DNA from: Psilocybe cubensis
Taxonomy: Eukaryota
Assembly (NCBI GenBank): GCA_017499595.2
Contig: CM039010.1
Coordinates: 682,001 to 746,000, forward strand
Direction: 5' to 3'
Length of the DNA stretch: 64,000 bases
Part shown: positions 38,241-64,000 of the stretch, piece by piece
Layout: the number at the start of each line of letters is the position of its first letter
How positions within the stretch are numbered: the first letter of the stretch is position 1
Notes under the pieces: model-generated
Told to the model about the DNA's origin: nothing
Seen by the model: the letters and a program-made list of their open reading frames with translations, nothing else
Database searches by the model: none
Position numbers and translations under genes: made by a program

Positions 38241-38479
38241 TTAGGCTAACAGCTCTTATAAATGTTTTATAAACCATCCTAATATGATGAATTTTAGTAC
38301 AGCAGATTTTGAAGTGTATCAGACGATAGAGCGAGCAAAGAATTTATTGCAAATAAGCAGTAGAAGAGTATAAACGCGGGCCAGATACATTAAAAAGGTT
38401 TAAAGTAAAGCAAAAGAGGACATGTTAGGGGAATAACCCAATAGCCTCACGGAATATCCTGTTCAGTAAAAACAACTAA

Positions 38480-39122: not shown

Positions 39123-39215
39123 GATGGCTGAGGAGTATGGCACCTCGGTTGTACTTGCTCTATTGGGGCCTAAAAGAAGAAAGAATGTTTAAGCAAAGGG
39201 CAATAAATGCAAAGA

Positions 39216-42200: not shown

Positions 42201-43062
42201 TGCACACGCCTTAATATATTTCTTGATGGCTTCTCGGTCAGGTTTCTCCTGTGAGTTCTTTTCATCCTCTATATCTTTGGTGGCTGTTGCAGAAAAATGG
42301 CTAAGAAACTGTTTCAAAAATTCGTCGATGGGCCAGGCGTGACTATATTCGCGAAAGACCTTGGCATTTTTAATAGCCTGTACTCATTTGGGAGTTAGTA
42401 GATTATACGTGCTTAAATAGTTTTTGAGTGAATCACATACGCGTTCTTTTGCACATCTTATCTTGTCTCTTGATTGACGTCTAAACGGTTGGCGAACATC
42501 CAGGTACTGGAAGGCAGCTAGCTTGACTATCCGCTGAACACAACGGCATTTTGGTCATCATGGGCGCACGTAACATCTGCATAAGAAGCTCACATTGAGA
42601 CGCAAGTAATGTTCTTTTGTCAATCCCATGGCAAGCTCGAGGTTAAAGCCACCAAAGGCCTCACCGCATCCTGCCTGGCCAACGGGACAAGGTATTAGCC
42701 TATCATTCTCTTGGTCTTTAGCTACCTTGCGTTAGAACATTTAATCCGTCATTTTAAAATCAACACGCACATAATTGATATTTCAGGTCTTTTACAACCT
42801 TGTCTTTCTCTGCTAACTCTTTTTCTTTCTGAGCCAATTGCTTAATCAGCTCTTCTCTTGAAAGTAGGTGGGGTTCCGAGGAATTTTCAGCCCCGGAGGG
42901 GTTTGCTTTCGAAGAGTTTTCAGGCCCGGTGGAAGGGTTGGGGTTTGCTTTCGAGGAGTTGTCAGGCCTCGCGGCGGAAGGGTCGGGGTTTGCTTTTAGG
43001 GGTTTTGCAGGCCTGGCGGCCCTGGACGGGTTTTGATATGCTTTCGATGATTTCGGCGGCAT
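39216..43062 (-). CDS. Multi-exon protein with an N-terminal Agaricomycete LIPxPxGQAG...WP..FL.QFL domain and a C-terminal RTC4-like domain (may be two genes)
   Basis: RLIPCPVGQAGCGEAFGGFNLELAMGL...YLDVRQ...AWPIDEFLKQFL. C-terminal (G)YYGPIVRSLI...FFNMVMVPHVVNLLIMEDMNCAYDDADKIWRESASFG fits the RTC4 pattern. Basic, low-complexity middle region. Confidence 0.6.
40378..40510. repeat. Coding 18-bp tandem repeat (EKATSQ/PKATSQ) inside the RTC4-like gene
   Basis: Repeated gacgtagcctt(c/t)..ctgg units. Confidence 0.75.
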
Positions 43063-43321
43063 GGAAGCTAGGAGGCGAAAGTAGTCGCTGTGTACTGTTC
43101 AGTTGAAGTTTCAGAGGTATATAACAAAGCGTTGGCGGAAAAACTCGGATGCATTGCCCAGCTAAAAGATAATATACGCTAGTCCTTATTTGGTAGCGTT
43201 ATACGCGGGGGCGCGATGTTTGGGGTATACGCTCACGTGAGGTTGTTCTAAGCGTATACCGGGCGGTTTGCGTCGATTTCAACTTCCAAGTCCCAAAAGC
43301 CCAAGTCCTGACAAATACAGC

Positions 43322-43907
43322 ATGTCCTTTAACGTGAGTTATTTCTCCGGAGGCCATTATGTTACCTAAACAACCGATGACTTTGGGCTAAAATTCTATA
43401 CAGAAACACAACTGCGTCAATTCTGCAGACGGTAAACGTCCCGATGCCCCAGTCGACGTACCACCAGCAAGCCCAGCGTGCATTTGTTGCGTTTTACTTC
43501 CGATGGCGGGCCTTTTGAATACGGATTCGGTTGATAGCACCTGCTTGCAGCCAACCAATTCCTCAGATACTACACCCACGGAACCTGCTTACCGCCAGCT
43601 GCCCACTGTCGAATGCGTCTGCGGCTGTATATCGCTCCAGCAAACAGCCCACGCTGCGTCCAGCAAACAGCCGCATCAAGTTAAGAAAAAACCAGTCCAA
43701 TCAATCCCGCTTTGGCATGCCTTTGTGCAGCAGGTACAACCTGCCGTCCCTCCGAAACAGCAAGCAATAGCCTCATGCCAGAATCCTATGAAGGGCGGGG
43801 TAAAACGGCAGGATACCCTTATTGTTGAAGACTTGCCTAGAAAGGATATAGGAGGAGAGAAACCCCGTTCTTTAAAGCGTAGCAATACGGAAATCTTCAT
43901 TTTATAG
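43322..43907 (+). CDS. Small hypothetical protein
   Basis: ATGTCCTTTAAC|gtgag intron, then an open frame through ORF 43503-43907 ending LKRSNTEIFIL*. Confidence 0.45.
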
Positions 43908-43979
43908 TACAATAAAGCTTTGGAGCAGAAATAATATACCTACATGCGTTTATGCTACAAATATTATTCCCCGGCTGCT

Positions 43980-46900
43980 TCAAATTTGAATATCTGCTAA
44001 ATTGTCAGAAGCACTCAGGTTAGAAAGCAGTGTGGTCATACCAGAAAGAGGTAAAGTCAGCTGGGAAGTAGCCCAGTTGTTGATGGTCACCAGCCGTTGT
44101 CGATCTTGTGAATGACTAGTCTTGCAAAGATGATGTTTAGACAGATAGGTCTTAGACCACGCTTTGATATGCTCCTGCTTGATAACAACATTCTTGCCGC
44201 GACAAAGAACATGTTGATTGATGTGAAGGCCGGCTTCCCATGCGCAATCCAAAATGAGAACTTCTTCTCCCAGATAATCTATCAACTCGCGAATGAACCA
44301 AGCAGTCCATCGGCAGTCAACAGGCGGAAAGTTAAACCAGTGCTCAAGGATGGTCGAACAAAATTGCAGAACACAGGTCTTCGAAACGGTGTTATACTTA
44401 AAAGATCGAGGAGCGTAGACGTAAACAGATTCTCTTGGTTGAAACCCGCTGATAAAGGAAGCGGCGTCGAACTCTGCATTTGTTTGTACAGCCAAAACTT
44501 CTTCAACCCGTCGAACCAGTCACTAGTCCCTACCACTTTTTATGATAAAACAATAGCAAGTGTTAGCACACTCTTTTTATAACTGTTGATGGTTTTATCA
44601 CAAAGCAAAATAATGAGAAGACTGGTCTATTTCTCATAAGTTTACTTCGCTTTTTCAAAGCCTTTTTCATTAGATAATACCCTTCTTTCTCATTATCTTT
44701 AGGGCGCTTTTTCATTACCTTTTGATTAGATACCAGCCTGGTTATTTGATAAGATTGTTCTACATCAATATATCTTATCTTTGCTTGGTCATTTCTGATG
44801 CCATGCCATCAAATCAGGAACACTGTGGGTACTTCTAGGCCATGTCTATCAATCCATCAAAGCTATTATTAAATAAACTTTTCTCTCCTCGGCCCCTTGG
44901 TCTATAAATAGTGCTCATCCTATGCTACTTTTGTGCATTGCTGGCAATGGATTGGGCGCTTTTGGGGGCATTTCTGGACCGTTTCCCTTGGTGTTTTTTA
45001 GTAGACCTATAGTTTTAAAGTGTCCCAATCCGAATATGAAATCAGAATTGCAATATCTTTACTCATTATTGTGCAATTAAGCGTACGATGTTTTGATCAA
45101 AAAGCGCACCTTGAATAGCACCATCCAGGGGCTGGTATGCACCATTTTGACTATGCAATTATTTTTTATTTATAATAGACGGAGTACATGCCAAGTTTCA
45201 GATCAATTAGAGCAGTGGAACCTATTGAACTAGCATATGCATCCTACCTCTCCTCCTACCCCTTGTATGAATACCTTCCTGATCAGATAAATTCAAGCCC
45301 AACTGGGATAAAGTAGGCGCTTATTATACCAATTTTTAAAGCCTAAAATATTGGTGAAACTTTAAGATTTAAGGGTACTACCCCCTACTCCCTCCAGAAC
45401 TTGTGTATTTTATTATGGGATAGGATGGGCTCTCAGACCATTGAAAGACATGTAGATCCATTACTAACAGTACATAGAGTCCAAAATTTACCCTTGAAAG
45501 CCCTCTTCAACAAGGGAACATACTGATTTAAGGGGGGGTATGAGGATAGGTATGGTAGGTTATTGATCAGGCCATATCTCTACAAATACATTGTCATAAA
45601 TCATATTCTTGACGTCTACAGATACCTATAGTTGCCCCCTAAATATCTTTCTTAGGCTGCAAAAAGATCCGTCCATTAGCTGAGATGCTGCAGAGGGAAT
45701 ACCATTCTTCATCAAAATGCATAGTATTTTCGCATTTACCATATATAAATGATTATGATCAGGAAATATAAAAGCAGGATAGTATAGCCTCAAAATGCAG
45801 CTTTCCAGAACATCAAGGATGTTGTGCATCGGACCAGTGGTTGCTGAGATATGGAAAGAAAGGTGTTGAAGAACCCATCAGAGACCCGGATGGATATTGG
45901 CCTTTATTTATGCTTTGTTTGTGGTCACCTCTTTGGCCTTTCTCCGAGATACATTTTGACATATCTCAGCTCATACTCATCGGATTTCCATGAGTCTATA
46001 TACCACAGATAGGTGTCATTTAGGGCTACACAGACGTATAGTTTATGTATTTTATAAATGTTATCTTTTACATCATATTTCGCTTTTCCTCCATTTTTGA
46101 ACAACAATGCTTTTTCTTCTTGTACCATCTTGTTAAGCGTTCTGGTCATTTGGCAGTATGAATATAATATGTAGAGGACCTTAGTAGCTATCTGTAAATG
46201 TAAGATATGTGCATTTTGGTGAAGTATAAGTGGTGATATGGTCATATTATGTTGTACATCCAATACCTTTTTATTAGCCTCATAACCAAGGTGTTCCCCT
46301 TCACTCTGAATGCTTCAAAGATATGTATTGCGTCTGTGGTACTATATAGAGCAGATTTACATACCTATATGTGCTGGGAATGGCCATTCTACCCCATAAT
46401 AAAATATACAAATTCTGGAGAGGATGGGGGGTAGTACCCTTAAATCTTAGAATTGCACCAAGATTTTGGGCTCTAAAAATTGGTATAATGGACGCCTACC
46501 CAGCCCTGGTTGGGCATAAATTTATCTGATCAGGAAGGCATTTGTACAAGGGGTAGGAGGAGGGGTAGGGTGCACATCCTAGTTCAATAGGTTCCACTGC
46601 TCTAATTGATCTAAAACCTGGCATGTACTCCGTCTATTATAAATGAAAAATAATTGCATAGTCAAAATGGTGCATACCAGCCCCTGGATGGTGCTATTCA
46701 AGGTGCGCTTTTTGATCAAAACATCGTACGCTTAATTGCACAATAATGAGTAAAGATATTGCAATTCTGATTTTATATTCGGATTGGTACACTTTAAAAC
46801 TATAGGTCTACCAAAAAACACCAAGGGAAACGGTCCAGAAATGCCCCCAAAAGCGCCCAATCCATTGCCAGCAATGCACAAAAGTAGCATAGGATGAGCA

Positions 46901-49900
46901 CTATTTATAGACCAAGGGGCCGAGGAGAGAAAAGTTTATTTAATAATAGCTTTGATGGATTGATAGACATGGCCTAGAAGTACCCACAGTGTTCCTGATT
47001 TGATGGCATGGCATCAGAAATGACCAAGCAAAGATAAGATATATTGATGTAGAACAATCTTATCAAATAACCAGGCTAGTATCTAATCAAAAGGTAATAA
47101 AAAAGCGCCCTAAAGATAATGAGAAAGAAGGGTATTATCTAATGAAAAAGGCTTTGAAAAAGCGAAGTAAACTTATGAGAAATAGACCAGTCTTCTCATT
47201 ATTTTGCTTTGTGATAAAACCATCAACAGTTATAAAAAGAGTGTGCTAACACTTGCTATTGTTTTATCAAAAAGATGGTAGGTACCACTCAACCAGTACA
47301 CCCAAGCCATTTGAGATGTCGTCCTTGCTACGATAGGCTTGCTCGAGGACGCTGTCCAACCACTCCCATAATAGAACGTTGGAAAGGAGAAGCTGCTTTT
47401 GTTGGAATTGGAGATCAAGTTTCGAAATTGTCTTCTTCTGGCTGTATGAAGCGTATAATTCGCAGGCTCTACGAATGTCACCTGAAATCACAGGCTGACT
47501 GAGAATTTCGGATATCAAAGACACGTCAAGCCACTTTGACTGCCCTTGAGAGGGAGTGTTATCGATTGGGAGGCGTTTTAAAGCAGCCAAAATTTTTGAT
47601 ATGCATTCTGGCCTCAAAGCATTCAAAAATTTGCTTGTTCCTATACAAAAAAAGCGGTCAGAAACCTTGAATTCAGGCTGAAACAGCGGAAAAATTGAAC
47701 CAACCTAGGGATGTTACCGAACTGCTATGCCGGGTAATTCGTTCTTTAGGAGCAGCATTTTTCTTGGAAGCTTATAGTTTTGTTTGCACAGCGGACATTT
47801 AGTAAGGTTTGAACTGACGAACCTTTCGATTTTGTGACCGTAGAATCTCTGTCTCCATATAGATTGTCTTCGAAGTTCAGATTGATATCTGGCCCGGAGT
47901 TGCTTTCGGGATTCTTGCGATGGCTCATTCGGCGAGCCTTGCTTGAGGTCAAGGTTTCTAAATTTTTGCTTGTAGATATTTGAACTCGACGGAGACAATA
48001 ATATTTTACATACGTTGTGATGTATTTCTACGCTTTTTGATATGTAAATCCATTTCAGAAACATCCCTAGTCCGTGCCCGTTTAACCGCTCCTGTGCATG
48101 TGTCAGTTATCAGGACGATGAAAGCATAATAAAAGTAAGCAACTAACCCTTGCGCGAACCTGTTTTGCTCTGTAATCCAATCACGGCTTCTTCGTCGTGG
48201 TCTCCAGCGGTTACACACAAAGGAATAGACTTTGCTGAGCTTTCCATGTGTTTTTTCCATTCTTGTACAGCCTCTTGGAGTTCAACGTTACCGTACGGTG
48301 CTTCGGACATAGAATCCGAGTTACAAAGCCTTGCAAGATCCTCTGACAAAAGATCCTCGATGGATGAAACGCCTAATCCACTAAGGATGCCTGAGTAGTC
48401 GGTACCGATTTTGACATCATCGCCTCTCCATCCGGGACCCAGATCCCACTCATCCGCCGTAACTCTCTTATTATCGATAACCACAGAAACCATTTTCATG
48501 GCTAACGATTTATCAACGCGTGGAATCAATTCCGGAGGCAACTGACGGGCAAAATGCGTGATTGCTTGGAGAAGAAGTCGACTGAAGTGATTGATATGAG
48601 CCTTAGGAGAAAGTAAAGAACCTCCGTCCGCAGTCCATGTAGCTTGCTTGCACATTGGCGTCTTCGATAATTTGTGCGACCTAAATTTCATTTAAGATGC
48701 TGGGCATGATGTAACGTTTATGCTGACAGACGTACACTGGATTTCGCATTTCAATACCGATGGCAAAAGTTGTATCATTAACTCCAGCCGCAAAAGCGAC
48801 GCTATCAACCCCGTCAATTAGTTGACCAGGAGGGTAACCGATGAGAGTTAGGCGATAGTAGATTTCGTTGGGTTGTTGGACGTAAATGGGTTGATGACCT
48901 CCATGGAAATGGAGACCAGAGAAAAATATGACGGAAAACTCCTCCATGAGATACGCCAATCCGCAGCATAAAATGTAAAAATTTTCAGGCGCCACGTCGG
49001 CCCTGTAGCGACTGAGAACGTGCATACAAGTTGGAGCACCTGAACTGTCGGCAGCGTCAACATGTGCCATCCCAAATTTTCCGAGCGAGGATTCCAAGGC
49101 AACATCTAAGCCAAAAATGAAGTTCAGATTGTATAATAGTTATGCGGGACACACCATGCTGTGGAACTCCAGGAGCTACATTCAGTTGCCAAGACGGCCA
49201 GACGCAATTATCATCATATCCTACTGGCGCTAGCGAGGCCACCTCGGCTTGACACTTCAGGCGCTGGAACAAATGCTTGGATGCTTTCTTAACTCCTTCA
49301 ATACCAGCTTTTGCCCCAGCCTGAGAATGCAATCAATTGACGTGTAAAACGTTCAGCGAACGACGTACTTGAAGTATATTGAACCGCATTTGCAGATCAT
49401 AATCCCTGGCCTGAGTATACACTTTGCTCTGAACTCCTGGAGCGCTGAGGGATTTCTGTGCCTGTAGGGTTGATCCAAGGGTGTAGCATCGAGGACCGGA
49501 CTTGATATTAACTGCGCAATCGCTTCGTTCAAACTGAATACCCCCCGAGTACTCTCCGTTTGTGTCCTTAACGGGTTTCTGCGAAGACATAAGTTCTTGA
49601 GGCCCCAAGATTTCTTCCTGAAGTCTGCGGCATTCTTGAAGGTCTATTGGATCTCGCTCATGTCTGACGGTTGTTTAATCACAAAATCAAATGCAAAAAA
49701 AAAGATCCTTACTTGCTCAGTGTCCAGGATTTAAGTACATCGTCTCCAGGAAGCCCCGAACCGTATCTATTGCGTTCTAAATAAAAAATGTTGTCGCTTG
49801 GTTTTATGTATAGCATTCCTGAAAAATAGAAAAACTGTCAATGCCAGCGGGTGAATTACAGAAAGGGATCAATCGCCTTGCATCTGTCCTTCTGCTGCAG

Positions 49901-50414
49901 TGCTCGGTACCTTCAAATTAGCGGAGTAATGAAATCTATGCCTCATCGCGTCCATTGACCAATCTGCAATGCCCAGGATGATCCGGGCCTTGGGGTCGTC
50001 GACTTTAGGATGTGATTTAAGTTCATATAAAACCGGAAGCTGAGGGTCGCGTCCGACAAGTTCCGTCATAAGGCGAGAATCAGCAGGAGGGTCAATTTCA
50101 ATGCGGTTGTCGTGAGAAGGAGGAGCGACATCCGATTGTTCAATAGTCGCATCGGTCTGAGGTGTTAGACGTCCCGTCGTAGAAATGGATTCAGAGGGAG
50201 GATGTGGCGGAATGCGGTTGTCAGAAGCCCGAAATGTAGGGTTCGATTGCCCCAAAGTTGCTGCTGTACGAGGCATCCGGCGTTTAGAACCCTGGGTCGG
50301 GGAGGGCGTCGACGCTGCTACCTTGCGACGCAATACCGGCCGGAGCGACTTGGGTGGAGGAGCGGCCGGCGCTGACGCGACTGTACGACTTTTACTTCTG
50401 GTCTCTGCGGGCAT
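43980..50414 (-). pseudogene. TET/JBP-family 2OG-Fe(II) dioxygenase gene, interrupted in its 3' part by a foldback element
   Basis: WPSWQLNVAPG...FGMAHVDAAD (HxDxxD)...FFSGLHFHGGHQP (distal H)...YRLTLIGYP (R). The frame on each side of the insertion joins as NGLGVLV|RRVEEVLAVQTN. Confidence 0.75.
44521..47290. mobile_element. Non-autonomous foldback/Mutator-like DNA transposon with ~0.9 kb TIRs and a 7-bp TSD (AACCAGT)
   Basis: Left arm 44521 to ~45440 is the reverse complement of ~46370-47290. AACCAGT lies at 44514-44520 and 47291-47297. AT-rich, with no recognisable transposase. Confidence 0.93.
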
Positions 50415-51458
50415 CGGAAATTGGGGGATGGAAGGGAAAGAGAGCGGAAGAACGAATGACAACCAATTAGTCTGGGCAGCTGAGCATAACAATAACGGGC
50501 ACGTACCGGGACTCGGCGAGAAATTGAAATACAGAATGTCAATTCCACCCGCACCTCATGCAAACGGTCTCCAATCCGCCTCCATTTTTCAGGCACGTAC
50601 CTATGGCCCGTTTCTTTCCACTTTTGTTTCAAACTTTTGTCTCAAATTTGTCTGACCTCCAAGTACAATTAATACGCTTTATAAAAGTAAGGACGCCCCA
50701 AGAAAGCGCCATTTTGTCCATAGTAAGGGCAAGTAGGTGCCTGTAACCCTGGAAATCATTCCGCCGCCCCACCGTCGATTACTTAGGCTGTGACGTCTAC
50801 GGTAACCAGCCCTACATACGTATGGAACTAATGCGTGTGTAGATATTCCTACGCGCCTACTCGGTCATCCGAATACATACAGATGGCTAAGATGGGTAAA
50901 TAACGTACGATAATCTTTGTATATACGCCGTCAATCGAATTCAATTCGAGTTTGAGACCGCGCTGACCTGCCGCCGCGCGAGTAAAGCAGGAGTACAATC
51001 TATTTATCGGGCTGGCTAAGATCACGTCTGGGTACTGATATGCAAATGACGACATACCGGGACCAATCCGCCATGCTGGCTCTTCGATGTCGTCATACGT
51101 TATTGAGCGGGCACTGCTGCTGCGAGGCGCAGACCAGCATACCCCCTACAACTGTAGGGTAGGAGGATCAATGCATATCCCTTATTCTGAATTTAGAAGA
51201 TAAAGGCGCGATCGACTTGTGCGCGCGCCCAATTAATTTGTCGCGAGTCGCTGCCTGTGCGTACTTACCAGTTATTATAATCGAGCGTTGTCAATACGGT
51301 ATACACTAGTTACAAAGACGCAACAGATTTTCTAATTCTGCCTAGGTATCTCTACTAACTAGACGGTACGGTTTTCCTCCTCCCGTATTGGGCATGTTGG
51401 CGGAAGAGAGAAGAAGGAAACCATGAGAAAGTGTTGAATTGCCCAACTTGACGCACGG

Positions 51459-51502
51459 GATTTCGAAATCCATGCCGAGTGTTCGGCATGGATTTCGAAA
51501 TC
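51459..51502. repeat. Perfect hairpin (20-bp stem, 4-nt loop)
   Basis: GATTTCGAAATCCATGCCGA-GTGT-TCGGCATGGATTTCGAAATC. Confidence 0.95.
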
Positions 51503-51722
51503 GCCGGGTACTTATTCCCGATACTGGCAAAAGACAACTCTTTTCCGATCCTCTACCACTCAAAGGCGTACGCTGCCGTAGCGCGCGCGGGGGGCATAAC
51601 GATGTCGATCGTAGATTAGGTATATATAATAGCTTAGATCGTACACATTTTATATACATGAAGTCGTAGTAACATGATATTCCTTCCCAGAAAACATCGA
51701 CGCGCATCGATTCGTCTCGATC

Positions 51723-54367
51723 ATGAAGCGGGTCGGTACACAGGGATATCGCAACAGATCAAAAACTGATAGATTTCATTGAAGCAGCGTTCCAATGTCC
51801 AGAAAAATGTTGCTCAATTTCTGGATGTAGAAGCGGGAGTTGACGATGGCGAGGAGGCGGACTCCGGCGAGGAAGAGTCTGAACAAGAACTAGACAGTAC
51901 GCGCCTATCTTATCTATTCTCCTGGGCAGCGCATACCGCGAACACCATCCTTACAAAACAATCCTAGACGAGTTTCTCGATGAACAGGAAGTCGACGGAG
52001 TAGACGTCCACCCTCGGTCGCTGGATGAATATGCTCAAATGAACGACGAAGCTCTAGAGGCGTTACTACTGCGATCCAAGGAAAGAAGCCTTGCGGAATC
52101 AAACCGACGAAAATCAAACTGTGTAGACGCAGCAGATGATATATTTTCTCCCAGTTTTTTGCCTGTATTAACTGAAGCGGATTTTCCCCTGTGGAAGGTG
52201 ACTTGTCGCGTAAGTTCTACCCTACGCGTCTTGTCTACTTGTTATGTTGACGTTTCCATAATATAGGTTGGCAGGGAAGAATTGGCTATTGCATCTTTAC
52301 TATTAAATGCTCAGGACAAGCACAAAATTCGATCTGCTTTTTCTGTTGAGAGGATGAAGGGATGTATATTTTTGGAAACACTTTGGAATCCCAATACCGT
52401 CGATCTGTTGAAGAAGACTCCGGGCGTTTTGGTAACAAAGCGAGGCGTACAACAATCATTAGTTTTGCCTGACGATTACCGAGAAATACTTCGGGGACAA
52501 GGCAAAATCTCACCCCCAAAACGTGGATCCTGGGTCACCGTCTCAAAAGGTGCATATCGAGGAGACGTCGCGCTGGTGAAGGAAACAGAAGGGAGGCTTG
52601 TACGCCTGTTAATGCTTCCTCGTCTTCCCTTACCCGGTGCAAGCAGGGTCACCAAAAGAAGGAAGACAGACCATTCTGGAGATTCTGTTCTTTGGTCGAA
52701 GACGCAATGGACGGAGTGGTTGAATTCTCAAGGGCGCTCCCATCAGGTCGTAGAGCATACGGAACACTGCTGGCAAATAGGGAATACTCTTTTCGAACAT
52801 GGACTGATGATTCAGGACATTGGACAGGATTCTATCGATGTCGTCGTCGAGGAAATGCCCTTTCATTACTTCCGGCTTTTTCAACAATCTACGCACAGCT
52901 CCCTGGACTCCTCATACATGCTACGTCCCACCGAGTGGAAATTTGAACCTGGAGAGGCCATTCTGGCGGCAAGTATTGAAGGATCGCAATCTAGAGAAGC
53001 CTCTGTAGTCGCTATCCATCCGTACTATTTAGAGGTGGCATACACAACCCATGATTCGCATAATATCGCAGATACCTCGCTGGTGCCGTGGATTCGCGTG
53101 ACAAAATTGTTTCAACTCGGCGATTACGTTTCTGTACAGAGCGGGGAAAATCAGGGCGTTGAAGGTTGGCTAATTGCGAAAACAAATGAGGCGGTCGTGA
53201 TAGGACTTTTCGACTCGGACCTTCTGACAATCCCAAGTTTGCAAGTCTTGGACAATATACAGGTAAGACTTCGTCCTTTTCACCTTGAGTAAATTTTCTG
53301 ACAAAACGTTTGATATTTAGACAATAGAAGCGCCTATAAACTGGGTGCATGTTTCAAAAGCTCCTTTTCAACATCGGATGAAAGAAAACAAGAAAAAGAA
53401 AGTTGAAATCCCTTCTGAGGCTCGTCATTTTTGGTGTGATACAGAAGTTTTGATATCAAAACAGCATCATCCTATGAAAACTCGCCGAGGCAAAGTGGTG
53501 GACGTTTCGCCTTCCGCTGATTCTATACAAAACATGAGAGTGCTAGTAGAGCTATTAGACTACCACGCAGCCTGTCCTTTTTAAAAAATCCTTTTAAATT
53601 ACGGCGACGTTGTTGACGCAAGGTAACGCTTTCGATTCTTACACCGTATGACGCTGCGAGATCGACATTAATAAAAGTTTAACAGGACGCTTTTGCCTCT
53701 TGGAGATCGACATGCCTTTGATGGGATGCCTACCCTTCTTAATAACCCTGACAGATCTGTCGACACTCTATCACAGTCTGCTGAACGATCTGGTACCCCT
53801 ATTCCAACCAGCCCAATCGCCGACGGGCAATGGGATCCTTCAGCACCGTTACCCCACAATCCTCAATCCTCAATGTTGCCCTCGGAATACTCTCATCCCT
53901 CCCACGTTCTATTCAAAGAAATGCTGGTGGGACAGAAAGTCGCCGTCTATATCAAAGGGGGTTCATTCAAAGATTCCAAACGACATTACTTCGTAACTAT
54001 CGCTCGAGACGAAAGAAACCATTTCACATTGCTTTTGCTGCGCCAAAAAAGGCCTTCAATGACTCTACAGCCAGAATGGGTTACGCCAAAGCATCCCAGC
54101 GGGACTCACACTAACGACCTGCTGTTTGTTGTTGATGGAGAGAACCAACACCAATTTGTTCGCCGGATCGCTCAGCGAGACTTAGTGAACCAATCCCCTA
54201 TCCTTTTAGTCAATCCGGTAATGAGGAGGGAAGGGCAATCCGATATTTTATGCGGGGTTCCTTTTGAGGTAGAATCTACTGCGTTAGTCATTGTGGAGGA
54301 AACAGACTTGGAGAGACGTGCGAGAGATGCGCTGATGGCAGATTTGAGAAAACCATGGCGCTGCTGA
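51723..54367 (+). pseudogene. Divergent Spt5/NusG paralog (acidic N-terminus, NGN domain, KOW motifs) with one in-frame stop
   Basis: FLDVEAGVDDGEE; LWKVTCRVGREE...IRSAFSVERMKGCIFLET (NGN); GSWVTVSKGAYRGDVALV and FQLGDYVSVQSGENQGVEGWL (KOW). TAA at 53582-53584 inside an otherwise continuous spliced frame. Confidence 0.78.
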
Positions 54368-54754
54368 TATGTATCTCACTCTAATGTAAATCGGCCGGAC
54401 CCAATTCGCGGAAACGAATATATCTGTTTATTAAGGCGTTGGCATTACTGGCTTCTATAGCTAGCTGAAACTAAAATGCGTATCGCGACGTAAGTATCTT
54501 CCGGTTACATTTGCTTCCTTGGATCAGGTGGCGTGGGCAATATTTATGTTATTTCACGCCAGCGTGCGTGTTGAGTTTTTGTTCGAGCTTTGTTTTTTTT
54601 TGCTTCAGCTCTTTCCCCCTTGCCCGCCTTTTGTTCGTAAATCGTCAGTACTCGATACTCAGGCTTTTGACAATTAAGGTAACTTTCATGTGCTTATCAA
54701 AGAGCTAGCATAACAATCTGATGTGCGGGTTCTGCGCTGCTTGTAGCAAACACA

Positions 54755-55360
54755 ATGTGTCGAACTCTCAATGCCTGCCACCGAGGGGACAAAAACATAG
54801 TCATTTCTGTGCTGGATCTCTGTCGTGACACACGAAACTACGGCGGTATGCCCTTCATCTTTCTCAGAAAGTTTACGCTGCTCATTGCCAATCATCACAC
54901 ATATGCAGAGGGAGTTGAGGTGCTACAATGCTACCTAGCGGACTGCTATGAAAAGAACACCGCGCTTTCACAGGATGATGTGCAACTCTTTGCAGACTTC
55001 TTGCAAGACTACGTCCAATGCGTGCGCCGCTCTTGGTTATCAATTTCCCGACCTAGGACCATCCCACCGCCTGGACCTTCAGCTGCCGCCCGCCAGATCC
55101 TCAATGACATAAAAAAAGATGACCTGATTGTTTCTTGTATCAAGGCCCTTGAGATTTCTTTTGACCTCTCAAGGCTTGCACCACGTCGCAGCCGGGCATA
55201 TATTTTGGTCATGGTTCTGTAAGTCAAGGGCTGTCTATCAGAGCATTCTGGCTGACCCTGAGTACCTTTTAGAATTTCAACATTCCTTCTGGCTGTATCA
55301 GAGGTGGCTGAGAGGTCTGAAGGTCGGCGCTATACCCTGGAATCTTTCAATTTTCTCCAA
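54755..55360 (+). pseudogene. Hypothetical helical protein, apparently frameshifted
   Basis: ORF 54755-55222 overlaps a protein-like frame (HHVAAGHIFWSWF...WLYQRWLRGL). No family recognised. Confidence 0.3.
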
Positions 55361-55999
55361 CGTGCAACCCGTGAAGCTCGACAAGCAGGTATCTCGCGTA
55401 GAGACGCAGTCTATAGAGTTATACACACTCAAGTTGGATTGCTTTTCAGCTCTCTGTAGCTGTTTTGTTTGCCGCTGTTGTTGCAGAATAGGTTTTGTCT
55501 TTAGCATCCAACAATTGTTAATTAGTTGTCGTACGTTAACTGCCAATACATCTCCCCATCAATCTACAGCCTGTAGATTTAATCTGCCACAACTATGGTG
55601 AACCAAGAGCATGATCTATATAGAACGGTATGCAGTAATTATGTTTGTTTCTATCTGCACAGTATGCACGCATATCATTCTAGCTTGACAATACCTTAAT
55701 TGTGATACTAGTAGTTGGATAGCCGGTACCCCTATATTTTGATGACCCTGTTCCGCTGACCAGTCATCAATATAATAGCACTATGTCACATACGCCAATG
55801 ACTGCTCTTATGTACCGGTTGCGAAGCCCTGAAACAGCTTTATAACCAAGGGCCTGTCACTGCTTGTTAGTCCCGTCTTTATATACCTCGACACTGCTTA
55901 ATCTCTGGCTGCCATAGCTCTCAATTGAACCTCCTCGACGATTGGATTGATTTCTCTGATTCTAGTTAACTTGCTAACACCTCCCGACCCATAGTTGCT

Positions 56000-56465
56000 A
56001 TGGATGTGGCTCAACATTGCGACCAAACTCGCGTCGATGTCCCAACACCTGAGTCAAACACCTTTCCCGTCCTCTCAAATCGTAATGATTCCCACTTCCA
56101 ATATCAGTTACTCAATCTGGCAATGACCTGTGATACGGTTTTTGGTCTTACCAGGGCGGCAAATGCGCTCCACAACCTCTTGTTGGAGAACTCTGGGATT
56201 CTCGAAGAACGTATTATAACTTGCAGTCGATCCATGGTCGAAGAAGCGGCTGAATTCGCGGATAACGACGTTGTGAGGGCCTCTTCTCGCTGTGTGTTGG
56301 GCGTGAAACGCACGTTCTGACCACCCTTTCATTCAGTTTGAACTTGCCACTATCCTTGCTGCTATCCCCTCGGTCAACTTTCATTTGAATATGGATCTAA
56401 TTCAAGATGCAGCACGTGCCGTCTATGTCGCAGCTGGTCTACGCCGAGACCTAGATGTTCGTTGA
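56000..56465 (+). CDS. Small hypothetical protein
   Basis: 106-aa ORF plus a probable downstream exon. No family recognised. Confidence 0.3.
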
Positions 56466-56584
56466 ATTCCTATTCCTCTGATTCAAATTAACCATAAGCT
56501 AACGTCACGGGTCTAGGAAGCGTTGAAAATATGCAGCTTGGCCTTGACAAAAAAAGAGTGAATTGTTTATGCAAAGCTTATTTA

Positions 56585-59500
56585 TTATACAGCGTCGTCG
56601 TCAGGCTCCTCAGAGTCGCCTCTGTCAACAAATATAGTCCGCGAATACTCGTCGCTTCTATCTACAATTGCCCACCCCTTTTGTTCTCGATATATTCTTC
56701 CAATGACGTTTGTAATTGACTGTAAATCGAGCGCTATCATTGCCCGCTTGTCTGATTCCCTGAAGACCGTAAGGGTTTTTGCTGCATTTTGCCCATTTGT
56801 TCTGTAGGGAGTCACAACAGCCAGCAGCCGAAGGGACCGCTTCCACAAGCCCCAGAAATCATCGCCCGGGACGTTGAATTCGAGAATTAACTCCAAACGT
56901 CCGTAACAGATCTCCGCATTCTCGCGTATAACATTATTATTCCGGTCCTTTGTCACGCCAAGTAGTTCATACTGGCGGTAAATATCATGCCCGCAGTTAA
57001 TAATCAGTCACATTTAGGTATTTTTCCAGGAGTAAGTTGTCAAAAACGCACCTTCACCCAGGATCTGCTTCTTTTATTTCCAATCTCATGCTCTGAATGT
57101 ACTGCTATCCTATCCCCGCCCATAATCCTGACCTTTCCCCAACTTACTAACGTCTGAGGAAGCCTTTCTTGGATTGAGCGGGGGCTCTTCTTGATGATTG
57201 GACTAATATATTCCGCAATTCTTTGTCTAATGTCACGGCTTGGCTTGTACGCTTTGTTTTGTGGCGGCATAAGGATAGAAAGTGGATCTAGTATTATATT
57301 TATTTGTTTAGGAAGTTAAAAATATTTTTGTAAAGCATGATATATATGATATTTATGGTCAACTCACACTGCGCATATAGGTGTTCACGTTCTTTCACTG
57401 AATCTCGTGTACTTCGAGAAGGAACCCCGTGCGACTTTAAGTCGTACAAGTTGTCAATCATAGACAGATAAGCCCTGTTTATGACAGCGTTATCCAAATT
57501 TGCCCATGGACTGACGTGGGATCGAAGCTTGGTTCTCATAAAACCGCAAAACCGCTCCATCCAAAACGTCCAAGTAGCCCAGACAGGTCCACAATAGCGT
57601 ATATTATCGCATAAGTGTAGCATGCCGTGAAGAGTTAATACACACATTGGCAGTCGGTCGTATTTATACTGGTAGTAAAGCCTGCAGACAACATCGAAGA
57701 CTGACTTTAAATGGGCACTGATTTATGCTTACTTTTCGTAATCCTGGACCCAGCTTGCAATGCCTATTTCGAGCGCGCTAAGATCCGCACGCGTCATGGT
57801 CAAGGCTGTTAACTTTTTCATAATGTTGACCAGTCGAATGAAGTGATGATAATAGATTTCTTTCTTAAATCTGTCCTTCAGAAGAAACGGGGCAAGGTAT
57901 ATAAACCAAAATGACCATCCCTCTGCATTGAGATACTTCTTGTTGTTGTAGGGGTTTCCGAGCGCCCCGACAAAATACGAGGGTATCCACTGGACGGCAT
58001 ATTCAGACTCTTTCGCAATTTCTTCCCATATATGCCCTGGGATTATGAAGTCATATTCCTCCTCGTCATCAAAGCCCTTGAACCTTCCCAGCCAGAGATC
58101 TACAAGATTTTTGACTACATTTAGGAACAAGAGATGCATGTAGTCCCAGGGCATCCCCCGAGCGTAGTCCAGTGATTGCACACGCTGAAGTGCAGGCATT
58201 CCCTTAATACCCGTTTGCATGGCTATCTCTCCTCGCCGCTGCGCAGTTGGCGTTTGTAGCATTCTTTCTGTGGTAATTTGCCAGTCGACATGCTTTCGCA
58301 GCGGTAAATTCAAAGGATCATAAATTTTCTCTCGACGGGTTGCCAACAGCGGCACATAATAGACCCCATTTCTTTTCCCGGCAGGCTTGTAGAGCGCTCC
58401 ATGGATTCGACATGATCTACACGGACACAAGCCGTTGTGCCCTTTAATCTTAAGAAATTTTTCCATTGTGACAATATCTCCGGTTGTAAAAATACAATAG
58501 GCACGGAGAAGAAAGATACTGCGAGTAATGCAATTGAAGGTTTTGATGCCTCTGGCTAGCGTCGCCAATTCATCGTCAAAAGGATAGAGGAACGATGTAA
58601 GATTTTTGGGGGCGTTTGGCCCTGGAACAACCCCAAGACAAACCACATGTGCTGAATGAGTCCTAACGTCCGATGGTAAGCTTAAGATTTGCACAAGTAT
58701 GGGCATCGCGGATGGTCCACTTGGCCTATATTTGTAGAGGAGGAAGCCGTCCATACATAACGACAGCGCAATATCGGTAGGAGCGGAGAAGTATTTATGT
58801 GGAAGCTGTTGTCCGTCAACGACAACGTATGTTCTACGCAATTTCTTGTAATGTCCGCAGTCAAACACATCCTCAATATCGTCCGAATCTTCCTTGTTAT
58901 CGTACATGTTCTGTCTATAAGACAAAAGGTTCGCCGTTTCTGGATTTGCAAAAAGTGCCTGGAGTTGCGGTGATAGTGGAATATAACGGAAAATTCGACG
59001 AGATCTGCCTCGCGAATCAAAGCGTGGTTCCCGGCAATAAAAACATAGATTGTCGTCCTTGAATTCTCCCGTGTAAGCCTTGCACAAATTAATGCAACAA
59101 TCGATTATTTGCGGCACAAGGTCTGACAGCTTAGCCACACGATTAACCGTGGCTTTCCAAGAACTTAACGGCATGCGATGGCCAAAATAGTAGGGCATAT
59201 CATCATAGACGGCGCGGGAAAAATTTGACATGATTCGAAACCTGAAAGCCTGTATATGGTCTACGTCCTTTAATGTGAGACTATGGCAACCTGTGAAGCA
59301 TACAGCTAAGTCAAACGCATACTGAAAATCAAAGAATGTCAATAACTTACTATGCTCCATGACATCTATAAGGTCGGAGTTGCTGTCACGATCACTCCAA
59401 TCTGAAGTGTCCTCTACATTCAGTTCCTCCTCAAGAGCAATCCTTGCGGCTATTTCGTCTTCCTCCACATATTCAAAGCTAAAGTTGTCTGGGTGGTCGG

Positions 59501-60314
59501 AAGGTTCGCCGGGACCCTGGGTTGAACCATCACTGCCCGTTGTAGAGTTTGAAATTGTGTCGAGGAAATCATCTCTATGGAGAAAATTGTCTGAACTAAC
59601 AGGGCTCTCAAGGCCGTTGTCGCTTCTAGCGGGTGTTTCCTCGTTCAATCGTTGGATTGGAATGTGAGGGCTTGTATCTTTGGCCTCATCCTCATCCTCA
59701 TCCATTTGATGAAGTAAACCATCACTATAGTGCGAATTTTCCAGGCTGACAGGGGTATCAAGGCCGTCATCCCTTCTTGGAGGAATATCCACATCCAATC
59801 GCAGGATTGAAGGCTGAGGGCTGGTATTATTTTGGGGTTCATCCTCATCCATTCGATGAAGGTCGCAGTTAACACGAAATTTACCTTCCGGAAGACGGCG
59901 CTGCTCATCCTCATCCATCTCACTAAGCTCTTCATTAACATTATATTCAGCTTGGGATATATCTGAACGGCCCCCAGCGCCCGACGAATCTTGTTCTATT
60001 AATAGGTCTGAGTCGTTATCACCTCGATATCTGTGAAGTACTATAGATCAACGGTCCAAGTTTAATGCGATTTTGATAAATACAACATACTGTGGACTAT
60101 GATTTGAACGATTTATAGCGTCGGTAGAATAATCAGTTTCCTCCTCAGTGTCGGGGGGTGGTGTCCTTCCAACCATCCTGTAATGTTTAGCCCAAGTTTG
60201 ACGCGAAATGGGCTTTCCCATACTACGGCAGTTGAGTGCGCAACCACAAAGCACCTTTCCAGTTCTTTTGCGGCGGCGAGTCTGACGACGCTTGCGATGG
60301 GTAGTGCGACGCAT
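56585..60314 (-). CDS. CACTA/EnSpm-superfamily transposase (Tnp2/Transposase_21 plus DUF4218-type region)
   Basis: N-terminal CxC...C; IDCCINLCKAYTG...CFYCREPRF; FRYIPLSPQLQALF; DVFDCGHY; LSLCMDGF; GDIV...KGHNGLCPCRSC; DYMHLLFLN; HGMLHLCDNIRYCGPVWATWTFWMERFCG. No stop codons seen in the exons. Confidence 0.92.
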
Positions 60315-60549
60315 CAATAACTAACTTTACATACGAGTATATACGAATTAAATTGAAAACACGATACACCATGCGTGAAAGCGACGTACTTGTGTACGAA
60401 TTCAGTACGGAATGTTCTTATCAAATTTCTCGATCCTATCTATATACTGGTGCTGTGTACTACTGAAGTTTACTAATTGTCGTTCGTTTCATTATAGTGT
60501 TAGAAGAGAAAGGAAGAAACCCTTCAACCACGTGCAAAGCAGGAGTAAG

Positions 60550-60608
60550 TACACCGCTATTTCGAAATCCATGCCGAGCATCGGCATGGATTTCGAAATA
60601 GCGGTGTA
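60550..60608. repeat. Perfect hairpin (28-bp stem, 3-nt loop) sharing its core with 51459-51502
   Basis: TACACCGCTATTTCGAAATCCATGCCGA-GCA-TCGGCATGGATTTCGAAATAGCGGTGTA. Confidence 0.95.
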
Positions 60609-62299
60609 TAAGTTTACGGCTGCGAAACCGTGGCACGTTTTAGCAACTTACTCCTTCCCATTCTGGTACAGACGCAACAGTACAGCAGAAATCACCTGGA
60701 AGCTCGTCACTTGCAGGATAGACATAGTATGGTAAGTAATTCGTGTCTCCAAAGTATTCGCCTCTTACCATTTCTCGGCGCAAGCTTCTTGGATACCAGG
60801 CGGAGGAGGGGCGGTTATGGGCATAGATGTGCTTTTTGTCGACAACAGCACTTGCGGAACAGTGACACAATCAGCAGTGGGAGGGGCGGAAGATGCGGGG
60901 CTTGCTCATCTTAAATTCCTGAACGACATCCAGCTGATAGAGACAACTCACCACCGTCAGCACCTCCCTTGGACAATGGGTCAGCCGCAAATGACTCATC
61001 TAGTATAGCTAGTATTCTATGATATAGACAGAGAAAAGATGGCTGCGGCATTATCATAGTTATCCAAATAGTCAGGTATATTGTAACTACACAATCAAAT
61101 TATCTTGTAAGCTGCTTGTCTCATTCTTTAGAACAAGCCTCGTCTGCACCCACGGACTCTCGCCTCCATCCCAATATATAGGCCGGACTGCTTGTTGAAT
61201 CTTGCCCATCCTGCTCCCTGACGACGAGTGGCACATTGCTGCCTATCTTTGTCAGTTATAGGCTTGTAAATTGCGGTATTGAGTCAACATCCTGAACGAC
61301 CGTTATGGCTCACTCACTGAAGGGCCCAGTCTTACGCAGAGGTCAGTCGTACTCCCTCTGCTTTCTAACTCTTTACTAACCTTCGTATAAGAATGTAAAC
61401 CTACCACGACGCTTTTCTTTGCTGCATGCGGCATCTATCGCTGGTGTGCGGTCGGCTTAAAGTACTAAGACTGCGGTGGATCTGGATGTGATGAGTGCAG
61501 GCGGGATATGGCAACGTGCCCCCATCTCATAGGGTAAGCCGCCCGCGCCGCATATACCAGCGCACATAGTGATGCTTGCTGAGCCAGATTCCGGGGTTGG
61601 GACAGGGTGGAGAAGAAGGTATGGGTGGGGAGGTGGGCAGGATGCAAGGGATGGCGGTGCCTTATCTTCTCGCGTTAGGGATGTTTGGGAGGGTGTACGT
61701 GCTTTTTCTGTCATATACCCAACGGCGTCTCGTAAATCTCCTCTAAGAGACCGTTTGCTTTCAAATTCTCCAGATCCCATCAAATCGTCTATCTTGCGCG
61801 AATCAGGAATGGGGTGGAATACACCAACATTGAATGGCTCTATTCAACCTTCCGGGAGTACAGGTCTATAACCTCTCCACTTCGCATTGCCAAACAAGAT
61901 TCTCCCAGTGGTCGTGTTCGAGGTCCTGCCGTGGCTCGCAGAACCTCGTCTAGCTACCGATATGTTCATAACAACAACCTTGTGTCCAATTCTCCATTCA
62001 AGTCACTGATACCAACGCCATTGACCCCATCTACACGGCCGCCTCCTATTTCATTTCCGACGAGGAAATATCTGGTGAAAAACACCCACGCCCCTCATCG
62101 ATGCACGAACTAGGAAGCAAAGCAAAACATTCCAGGGTCTTATCGACAAAGAACCAGTTACCAAGAGTCCATTTCGTATTCAACAGAAACAGCCTGTTTC
62201 CCAGCCCCCGAAGCCTCCCCTCGCTCCCATTCAAAACAAACAATCAACTTTATTTTCAACCCCACCCGCGCCGTCACATATTTCACCCCCGGTCTCTAC

Positions 62300-64000
62300 A
62301 CCCAATAATGGTCCATCTCCTGGTCGCATGGTTCGTCGTCGAATGCGACTAGCCCTGTGCTTTCGACTAGTACGTTGCAGACTACGCCTTCGCCTCCGCC
62401 GCTTAGCGATGAGGGCTTGGGATCAGGGTCAGGGTCTGGGGCGGGGTTGGTTAGTAGGAAGGAGATGGAAGAATAGCACACCCAGCAGCATACCCAGCAC
62501 ACCCAGCAACAGCAGCGCACTAGTACTCAACGCACAGGGACTGGTGCCCGTACTGGCACTGGCACTGGCAATGGTGTCCAGCGCACCAACGCAGAAGGAC
62601 CACGGCTTATCCCTGTCGACCCAGTCCGCGCCACCCCGCACCTCCTTGCAAAAATCCCGTATGTGCCCGTGACGATTGCGCATTTGCCGCAGGATAGTTT
62701 GGAGGCGCTTAGATCTGTACGTCTTGGCTGTTAATTGTTTGTTTGTTTTCTTGAGCACTTTCTGATGATGGATTGGTTGGTTGGTTTTTGGTCTTTTTAG
62801 GCATGGCGCGAGGCATGTGCGCCGCTTTATCATTGTTGTCGTAGTGTGTGTGAGCGTGCGAAGGTGGTTGAGATGAGTGCACGCCCTGCTGCTGCTGCTA
62901 TGGGTTCGTAGCAGGGTGTTGTACCGCGGGTCGCATCAGGCGGTGTACCCGACGCCGAATGTTCCGCCGCTGCAGCATGCGGGCGATGAGATTGTGTTAA
63001 AGGAGGATGAGGACGATGGCGTCGATGGCGTCGAGTTGGATACAGATATGGAGATGGAGATGGGGATGGGGAGGGTGAGGAGGAGGTTGATTATGATGTT
63101 TTGGATTATGAGGATGAGGATGAGGAGCAGGAGGAGCAGGAGGAGCAGGATGAAGAGGAGGAGGAGGAAAGGGAAGAAGTGCAGGAGGAGGAGGAGGAGG
63201 AGGAGGAGTACGACCCCGACCATGACCATGGCCATGCGGCGGAGAGGTATCGGTACTCTGGCTCTGTCTCTGTCTTTGTTTCTTCGAGTGTAGCTGTACC
63301 CGCTATATACTACTACCACCACCACCGCTACTACCACAACTACCACCACCACAACCACCGCCACCACAACTACAACCACCGCTGCTGATATCCACACTCC
63401 GACGTATAGATCGGTCCCTGCCCCAACCCCGCTCTTCGCACAGCGCCCATTGCGCAAGAGGTCATCTGATGAGCTTAATGATGATGGAGATGGAGAGGGT
63501 GATGCGGGGTACGATACGGCGAGTAGAAGTAGCGAGACGCTTTCGTCTTCGTGGGTGTCTAGTGCTGGAGCCGGTGCGGGGGATAATGGGCGAGAGAATC
63601 AAGGGGATAATAGAGGGGTGTTCGACCTGTTGATGTTGCTGTGGGTGTGGGTGTAAATGTGGTGGCGCCGGAGCTTGTGATGAGGCCGAGGAAACGGAGT
63701 AGTGAGGAGTTGGATGATGAGCATGAACGTGAACGCGGGCGTGAGCGTGGGAGTGAAGAGAGGGTACCGTGTCGGGGAACATACCATAACGACAACCACA
63801 ACCACAACGACACATATAGCCTCCACAACCACCAACGTATCCGGGTGCACGCGCCGCTTTCGCCGTCGTCTGAGAGCCCGCGCAGTAGAAGGCGGAGCGG
63901 GAGTGTGTATTATTCATCGTCTGCCGATGCGGAGGAAGGTGATCGGGATGTGGTGTTTTCTGAGGTGGGCGATGGCGATGTTGATGTTGATGTGCATGTG
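62300..64000 (+). pseudogene. Degenerate low-complexity coding relic with (GAG)n, (CAC/ACC)n and hexamer microsatellites
   Basis: Acidic stretch DYEDEDEEQEE..., poly-Thr and LRKRSSDEL in shifting frames with many stops. Confidence 0.35.

Follow-up and report, generated by a model that had tools for sequence, protein, structure and literature searches.

The window analyzed here is a 64,000-nt stretch of the Psilocybe cubensis genome (contig CM039010.1, positions 682,001 to 746,000 of the forward strand), the right-hand part of which is occupied by a giant DNA transposon of the EnSpm/CACTA type, hereafter element A, that carries a strongly diverged paralog of the transcription elongation factor Spt5. 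As judged from its introns, domain order and codon substitutions, this paralog is shown to be a DNA-level capture of the host SPT5 gene, which was trimmed of the KOWx-KOW4 segment, of most of the acidic N-terminus and of nearly all units of the C-terminal repeat region (CTR), and which purifying selection has maintained as a permanent accessory gene of large Agaricales DNA transposons. The transposon-borne Spt5 is a real and selected gene, widespread in Agaricales and apparently undescribed. With respect to its function we favor, with a probability of roughly one-half, an RfaH-like specialized elongation factor that would keep the element transcribed despite silencing by the host.

The Spt5-like gene contains 779 codons between the ATG at 51723 and the TGA at 54367, with all five introns of the GT-AG type and an in-frame TAA at codon 540. 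Its six exons encode the following modules.

51723-51731, 51788-51896 and 51968-52209, forward strand: exons 1-3, short acidic N-terminus with the FLDVEA motif, first NGN strand.
52267-53262, forward strand: exon 4, NGN, KOW1 and KOW2-KOW3.
53321-53622, forward strand: exon 5, KOW5 without a preceding KOWx-KOW4, premature TAA at 53582-53584.
53686-54367, forward strand: exon 6, one remaining CTR unit (TP...WDPS) followed by KOW6-KOW7 and a C-terminal helix.

An earlier note, made from the letters of this DNA alone, had described an acidic FLDVEA start, an NGN domain and several KOW motifs, all of which are borne out by a Pfam match, a profile alignment and structural model matches. The Spt5-NGN domain (PF03439) scores 25.7 bits against a cut-off of 22.4 in the annotated product P0001; exon 4 is matched by three database proteins, all labelled Psilocybe cubensis. 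A profile built from 75 relatives finds Spt5 chains of the PDB at E 8e-61, and its alignment to a K. phaffii-type Spt5 chain runs through NGN, KOW1, KOW2-3, a long gap at KOWx-KOW4, KOW5 and one unit in place of the CTR array of that chain. The same profile matches canonical fungal Spt5 at E 1e-59 vs. 7e-34 for RDM3; one annotation labels a transposon copy 'RNA-directed DNA methylation 3'. In the predicted model of the annotated protein P0003 (mean predicted local distance difference test, pLDDT, 76.7), the NGN domain matches archaeal 3lpe_A (Z 9.8, root-mean-square deviation, rmsd, 1.9, 70 aligned), KOW2-3 matches yeast 4ytl_A (Z 11.9, rmsd 2.4, 99 aligned) and KOW5 matches 5xog_W (Z 9.1, rmsd 1.4); the KOW1 call is sequence-based, the modelled protein having a mis-annotated KOW1 start. 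The last 159 residues, modelled separately (pLDDT 93.4), match human KOW6-KOW7 (5ohq_A; Z 9.9, rmsd 2.7, 107 aligned), the sole chain with Z of at least 8 among 48,161. For this C-terminal domain, Pfam gave no match in the window member and weak matches in 4 of 41 members, Foldseek found nothing at E of 0.001 or below (the best being 5ohq, 2e-3), and Atlas features reached 0.86 to KOW6/7 clusters, which serves as a lead only.

The earlier note had also proposed loss of the C-terminal repeats. The array itself is indeed gone, whereas one TP...WDPS unit persists and is followed by KOW6-KOW7, and the biggest loss in the window protein is that of KOWx-KOW4 and not of the CTR. The gap at KOWx-KOW4 (about 170 residues) is present in all five families of such genes (A-E) distinguished in the genome. 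The CTR comprises one degenerate unit in the window protein, one or two [TS]PxW units in families B-E and an array in the canonical protein. No GW/WG dipeptides occur in residues 556-700 of the window protein. The canonical CTR region (L047:6809-7571) has six of them, possible Argonaute hooks.

The canonical SPT5 gene, located elsewhere at C13:951900 (E 8.6e-19; C13 is the contig of the window), encodes 1136 aa with every domain and has nine introns. Its main exon is 67-89% identical to those of other Agaricomycetes (one outlier row, 56%). A Spt5-related protein of Suillus americanus (P0176), also among the canonical matches, combines a high score and 56% identity with the lack of an NGN match. 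The strong divergence claimed earlier is confirmed: the window protein is 18% identical to the canonical one, compared with 52-65% identity among canonical proteins from distantly related Agaricomycetes. All five introns of the window gene occupy canonical positions in the same phase; for two of them, where indels set the alignment columns apart, the match relies on the phase and the neighboring residues. Of the canonical introns, the four without a counterpart in the window gene belong to the lost KOWx-4 and CTR segments or to the boundary between CTR and KOW6. The retained introns show capture at the DNA level.

A phylogeny, as proposed by the earlier note, was computed for 12 canonical and 20 element-type proteins (LG+G4 with a fast search on 402 columns). 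In it the element-type proteins form one separate clade (SH-aLRT 99.3), which is long-branched, so that long-branch attraction is a possible artefact. Its attachment among canonical Spt5s is weak (70.9) and not trusted, and the grouping of family A with family D, the Helitron family, reaches only 59.7.

Selection on the gene was assessed from the ratio of nonsynonymous to synonymous substitution rates (dN/dS, Nei-Gojobori method). Between the window copy of element A and its copy on contig C5, dN/dS of the Spt5-like gene is 0.27 (bootstrap 0.20-0.36; 776 codons), with each of seven segments below 1, and 0.29 on CpG-free codons. An independent pair from family C gives 0.31 (0.26-0.40), and the transposase of the window and C5 copies 0.12. 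The comparison of families B and C has saturated synonymous sites, and that of the window copy with the one on contig C4, with four differences in the comparison, is uninformative. No stop occurs in the covered part of 32 of 35 family copies, two of which run into contig ends; those interrupted are the window copy, the one on C4 (by a different stop) and one E copy. The C5 copy of the gene is intact. Sequencing runs X1 and X2 have a sense codon at the position of the window stop, and one X1 contig covers the whole gene with 13 differences, none of which creates a stop. With its TAA at codon 540, the window copy has probably become a pseudogene only recently, in a family that is active.

These values bear on the simplest alternative, passive capture of a functionless gene fragment of the Pack type. 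Host-like fragments do occur in the elements (BCAS3/WD40 in A, a mitochondrial carrier in C), and the window and C4 copies have stops. Against this stand the dN/dS ratios of about 0.3 in two independent pairs and 0.29 on CpG-free codons, as well as full multi-exon frames in five families and relatives in 16 species. Passive capture without function is already largely refuted by the substitution ratios and the intact frames, and we regard it as barely credible.

Non-canonical Spt5-like genes were found at no fewer than 39 loci of P. cubensis, a lower bound from three genome searches (A, 3; B, 5; C, 6; D, 7; E, 14; degenerate, 4). The earlier note had suggested counting copies and transposase adjacency: 31 of the 39 loci have a Transposase_21, Plavaka or Helitron match within 10 kb, a zone that makes up 4.6% of the genome, and canonical SPT5 is 211 kb from such matches. 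Copies are not independent, the unit for adjacency being the five families. Among the eight loci without a nearby transposase, one is a truncated B copy and one lies at a contig end. Complete multi-exon frames are present in all five families, which are 18-42% identical to one another, lack KOWx-4 and have the introns in common. Element ends were mapped on two or three copies per family, with the following results for families B-E.

C6:3225475-3264415: family B, EnSpm-type element of 38.9 kb with 1.67-kb terminal inverted repeats, encoding a long coiled-coil protein.
C3:2140896-2191515 (L068-L073): family C, EnSpm-type element of 50.6 kb with 10-kb terminal inverted repeats.
Family D: Helitron of 22 kb.
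Family E: Plavaka of 18.3 kb, CATCA..TGATG ends, 2-bp duplications in two of two copies.

The B element is 99.985% identical to a copy on C11, and D copies are 99.99% identical; one B copy has mismatched 3-bp flanks. The 10-kb repeats of family C hold host-like fragments of a mitochondrial carrier and an endonuclease. A reverse-strand frame of the E element (L090:9054-9764 and L091:14-2120) is presumably a JmjC-like dioxygenase, recognized by eye from HxD, KLW, PNTLH and GGHFY motifs and lacking a Pfam match. A degenerate E-type gene (KOW2-3, KOW5, CTR unit and C-terminal domain) at L116:2374-3588 (C12:2032400) lies 6 kb from a Transposase_21 match, unlike other E copies, which accompany Plavaka. 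A region of C8 (2.42-2.74 Mb; L103, L112-L114) contains a cluster of old or decayed copies and one divergent open copy of family C.

Beyond this genome, phmmer found relatives in 259 clusters at 50% identity (E of 0.001 or below). Thirty of 150 listed clusters were examined, and the 29 named ones represent at least 16 species in 12 genera (Psilocybe, Panaeolus, Pholiota, Flammula, Cyclocybe, Amanita, Collybiopsis, Tetrapyrgos, Armillaria, Desarmillaria, Stygiomarasmius and Dendrothele), all of which we take to belong to Agaricales. A metagenome scan gave 128 relatives, of which 80 were kept. Twelve of the 15 metagenome loci of at least 8 kb, several of them closely related to each other, contain a DNA-transposon gene (5 Transposase_21, 6 Plavaka and 1 Helitron helicase piece); in the remaining three (L161, L167 and L176) no transposase was found, L161 having no open reading frame above the scan threshold. 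Shorter loci showed Helitron helicase, Plavaka, Transposase_21 and the KDZ-associated CxC6 domain, with long terminal repeat retrotransposon genes near two. The presence of relatives on several unrelated kinds of DNA transposon suggests that these elements carry a transcription factor of their own.

The distribution further indicates that the Spt5-like cargo has passed between transposon superfamilies. Metagenome locus L183 and loci L196/L197 are 96% identical in DNA over the Spt5-like gene and until about 200 nt behind it; beyond the shared part, a convergent transposase with 46% identity to that of the window follows in L183, and a Plavaka transposase in L196/L197. A recent exchange of the gene between superfamilies is suggested by this arrangement; nested insertion would be another explanation of the same pattern.

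The breadth of carriers also bears on the notion that the protein is a multi-KOW nucleic-acid-binding scaffold working outside Pol II (RNA polymerase II) transcription at another step, e.g., RNA handling or relief of repair repression at excision and insertion sites. Its proteins are a mere 18-24% identical to canonical Spt5 and have conserved family-specific motifs (PRPxEW and WVTPKHP), and KOW4-5 of yeast Spt5 represses transcription-coupled repair (PMC4066765). The NGN fold and core motif, however, are kept across the family in an unchanged domain order, and the gene serves both cut-and-paste and rolling-circle elements, which have transcription but not transposition chemistry in common. 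We consider such a scaffold very unlikely.

Element A exists in three copies (window, C4 and C5) and is 28.8 kb long without a nested insertion. Identity of the window copy is 99.6% with C4 and 85-97% with C5, and all have the same ends. All three copies end in CAC(A/T)GTGGGA..CCCACAGTG and have target duplications of 4 bp, not the 3 bp of EnSpm. Since the wider CMCT clade has duplications of 2-5 bp vs. 3 bp for EnSpm (PMC12730594), element A was filed as CMCT, EnSpm-like. Its features in the window, apart from the Spt5-like gene, are as follows.

37737..64000 and on to 5.3 kb past the window end (C13:719737-751324), unstranded: family A element (CMCT, EnSpm-like), by copy comparison.
37737..37746, forward strand: left terminus CAC(A/T)GTGGGA, 4-bp target duplication at 37733-37736.
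37927..38258, unstranded: six subterminal repeat copies, each about 40 nt long (repeat family D6).
39219..39767, reverse strand: RTC4-like cargo exon (PF14474, E 6e-11 on the C4 copy, from which the coordinates were transferred).
44521..47290, unstranded: nested insertion, a non-autonomous element of 2.77 kb; inverted arms of 920 bp (94%), target duplication of 7 bp.
48684..49136, reverse strand: exon of a putative TET/JBP-like 2-oxoglutarate-Fe(II) dioxygenase (HxD...H...R), found with Atlas; gene 48143-50420, start probably near 50420.
51459..51502, unstranded: palindrome 1, with perfect arms of 20 bp, ending 221 nt before the ATG of the Spt5-like gene.
54722..56540 (end approximate), forward strand: spliced cargo gene between the Spt5-like gene and the transposase, without a Pfam match.
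56585..60314, reverse strand: EnSpm-type transposase (Transposase_21, DUF4218), ATG 60314, main exon 57729-60047 (PF02992, E 7.6e-9).
60550..60608, unstranded: palindrome 2, with perfect arms of 28 bp, ending 236 nt before the ATG of the transposase gene.

The convergent CACTA transposase seen by the earlier note is thus real (Transposase_21, E 7.6e-9) and separated from the Spt5-like gene by an unrelated one of about 1.8 kb; a CxxC is present, and an H(3-4)H pattern was not found in the main exon. The intervening cargo gene has dN/dS of about 0.5 on two exons, and annotation P0002 fuses it to the Spt5-like protein. The nested 2.77-kb element is private to the window copy, being absent from C4 and C5, and interrupts a cargo reading frame that is intact in C4. 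The right part of the C4 copy (L042:2957-6431) holds a host-like BCAS3/WD40 fragment (E 1.6e-11), and a short frame of the same locus we take, by eye, to resemble Med31. The TET/JBP-like exon scores 0.97 in Atlas to clusters in which 14-54% of members carry PF12851, lacks a Pfam match and is confined to the three A copies; the regions of the other families yielded no TET-like, JmjC-like or RTC4-like exons. The core of the TET/JBP-like exon encodes an identical protein in all three copies despite a synonymous divergence (dS) of 0.32 in the adjacent Spt5-like gene, so that element A is a mosaic. Almost four-fifths of the differences between the window and C4 copies (60/79) are C/T at CpG, which makes up 22% of cytosine contexts, and from this excess we infer that the host methylates these elements. 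The host flank shows tandem gene duplications at window positions 27000-37700 and 7000-11200 (repeat families D2, D4, D5, D7 and D12).

The two palindromes had been regarded earlier as identical hairpins bracketing the Spt5-like gene and the transposase. They are 91% alike over 55 nt, internal to the element, and constitute upstream motifs of two genes, forming direct repeats when each is read along its gene. As element ends they were rejected, since the element starts at 37737 and runs to a point 5.3 kb past the window end; a dispersed miniature inverted-repeat transposable element was likewise rejected, as the arm occurs 12 times in the genome, always within the three A copies (four in each). 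The window palindromes exceed chance, with folding z of -4.4 and -8.9 (25 shuffles each), and no comparable inverted repeats occur in 37.7 kb of host flank. The C5 copy retains both, and in one of them both partners of a pair have changed; the palindrome bins top conservation in the upstream region (35 and 38 of 40 vs. 25-33 elsewhere). Families B and E have strong upstream inverted repeats of other sequence (z -5.8 and -21.8), and perfect inverted repeats precede the match by 330-610 nt in 7 of 14 metagenome loci tested, which represent three lineages.

The favored reading of an RfaH-like elongation factor follows from what was kept and what was lost: surfaces that hold Pol II and Spt4 are retained, whereas regulatory surfaces are gone. 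The Ser of the SAF motif and the Glu of the IYVE strand are kept in 60/74 and 66/78 NGN domains of the family, respectively, and we take them to be approximate counterparts of yeast Ser324 and Glu338. These yeast residues lie at the Spt4 face of Spt5 (PMC11627113). Yeast Spt5 without KOW4 retains Pol II binding and supports near-normal growth (PMC4066765); the CTR recruits Paf1C, termination requires its dephosphorylation, and Spt5 promotes premature termination (bioRxiv 2023.10.16.562519). In bacteria, RfaH excludes NusG and thereby shields 'foreign' genes (PMC3382729). By analogy, NGN (probably with host Spt4), KOW1 and KOW5 of the element protein would occupy the Spt5 site on Pol II during transcription of the element's genes, displacing host Spt5 as RfaH does NusG. 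The Pol II complex would stay processive without the CTR and KOWx-4 surfaces that the host uses to pause, slow and terminate. As a result, long cargo-laden elements might stay expressed in methylated chromatin, next to TET-like or JmjC-like cargo.

A bolder version, which we hold only tentatively, unites the upstream palindrome and the trimmed Spt5 into an exchangeable cassette present in at least three superfamilies, a eukaryotic counterpart of the RfaH/ops system that would render transcription immune to pausing, termination and silencing dependent on the CTR and KOWx-4. Speculatively, the palindromes that precede the Spt5-like gene and the transposase would be a loading or co-regulation signal, and the cassette Spt5 would load on Pol II at element promoters in place of host Spt5.

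Several observations weigh against an RfaH-like role. On the protein side, a number of NGN surface positions that are invariant in canonical Spt5 vary freely within the transposon family, loss of KOW4 reduces processivity in yeast (PMC4066765), the retained KOW5 together with part of the CTR stimulates Xrn2 (bioRxiv 2023.10.16.562519), and shortening of the Spt5 CTR in S. pombe enhances heterochromatin (PMC10659198), which is opposite to a simple anti-silencing prediction. On the side of the elements, two of the three A copies in the assembly (window and C4) are broken, and an Spt5-like gene occurs within 10 kb of only 13/27 Transposase_21, 11/63 Plavaka and 7/21 Helitron matches; being missing near most transposases, it is dispensable for mobility. 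Finally, palindrome sequences differ among lineages, and families C and D, like the canonical gene, have no upstream palindrome (z -0.3).

The same retained surfaces would allow action in trans, as a decoy or dominant-negative protein that sequesters Spt4 or occupies Pol II broadly and so weakens Spt5-dependent silencing by the host. Its targets would be transcription of small-RNA precursors and the recruitment of Argonaute or Paf1C through the CTR, and loading on the element's own genes would not be needed. This agrees with the kept Spt4-face residues and the single Spt4 gene, split by introns, in the 46.6-Mb genome; with the six GW/WG dipeptides of the canonical CTR region vs. none in the matching region of the window protein; with the participation of host Spt5 paralogs in small-RNA silencing in plants and Paramecium (PMC8934623); and with the easy exchange between superfamilies, which suits a function without an element-specific target. 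On the other hand, purifying selection acts on all seven folded modules, KOW6-7 among them, beyond the needs of a simple Spt4 sink, a global block of an essential factor would presumably be costly at 39 loci, and element-specific upstream palindromes hint at local action. A decoy is in our estimate unlikely, though the main rival of the RfaH-like reading.

The heterochromatin result from S. pombe and the Xrn2 stimulation named above may also be read as signs of self-restraint, in which the trimmed Spt5 dampens transcription of its own element as copy-number control and is closer to plant SPT5L/KTF1 than to RfaH: CTR truncation favors heterochromatin (PMC10659198), and KOW5 plus a CTR unit can stimulate Xrn2 (bioRxiv 2023.10.16.562519). 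The window protein lacks the WG/GW array, however, and the gene accompanies a putative demethylase cargo and is found in very young multi-copy families (B and D, 99.985 and 99.99% identical), which makes self-restraint quite improbable.

Specialized NusG paralogs on mobile DNA are a bacterial theme, plasmid-borne ActX and TraB being examples. RfaH with its ops site resembles the present case as a second elongation-factor copy tied to mobile or foreign DNA and, in some transposon lineages, by a palindrome upstream of the genes served; the transposon Spt5 differs in being eukaryotic, multi-KOW and derived from fungal SPT5 in a host without Rho, so that the likeness is one of analogy and not of descent. 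Canonical Spt5, the large subunit of DSIF (PDB 8qsz_Y, 6ir9_W and 5oik_Z), has FLDxEA, NGN, KOW1, KOW2-3, KOW5 and KOW6-7 in the same order, and five introns are common to the host and transposon genes. The transposon form differs by the absence of KOWx-KOW4, a CTR of one or two units, a short N-terminus, 18% identity and its presence at 39 loci on transposons vs. one housekeeping locus. Taken together, the shared introns, the co-mobility of three copies with target duplications, the purifying selection and the 39 loci in EnSpm, Helitron and Plavaka contexts give good support to the earlier note's proposal of a captured elongation factor on a transposon. The two outcomes by which that note would have been refuted did not occur, as both NGN/KOW profile matches and a separate canonical SPT5 were found, and the anti-terminator or decoy role that it suggested would be compatible with the domain anatomy.

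The closest parallel is provided by fungal DNA transposons carrying TET/JBP genes (Kojima 2025, PMC12730594), which likewise reside in Agaricales, belong to EnSpm, Plavaka and Helitron and exchange an accessory gene between lineages; element A itself has a candidate TET/JBP-like exon. Their cargo is a DNA-modifying enzyme, whereas here it is a Pol II elongation factor, and the covered parts of that paper and its supplement do not mention Spt5, KOW, NusG or Psilocybe. Plant SPT5L/KTF1/RDM3 and Paramecium Spt5m are also diverged Spt5 paralogs at the interface with transposon silencing (PMC8934623); those are host silencing genes, KTF1 having WG/GW repeats, whereas the transposon Spt5 is element-borne and lacks the repeats. 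The passages covered of PMC13289920 mention neither transposons nor Basidiomycota, and term searches of PMC10282164 (first 300,000 of 653,132 characters) and of PMC10799480 gave no match. Full-text literature searches gave no paper on a transposon-borne Spt5; Repbase and Iyer et al. 2014 (PNAS, KDZ/Plavaka), which were outside these searches, may mention such a neighbor. What is new is apparently the kind of cargo, whereas the strategy, i.e., accessory genes on transposons and NusG paralogs on mobile DNA, is known.

Spt5/NusG is the one transcription factor common to all life, and extra eukaryotic copies are unusual (PMC8934623). If the favored reading is true, the transposons of these fungi would have a new kind of counter to the host, directed at the elongating polymerase and not at DNA or histone marks. 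The family also amounts to a deletion series made by nature, whose hundreds of variants (259 clusters at 50% identity) are informative as to which Spt5 modules can be lost together, and many 'SPT5' annotations in agarics refer to these transposon genes. It allows a direct test of whether gene-specific swapping of Spt5 exists in eukaryotes.

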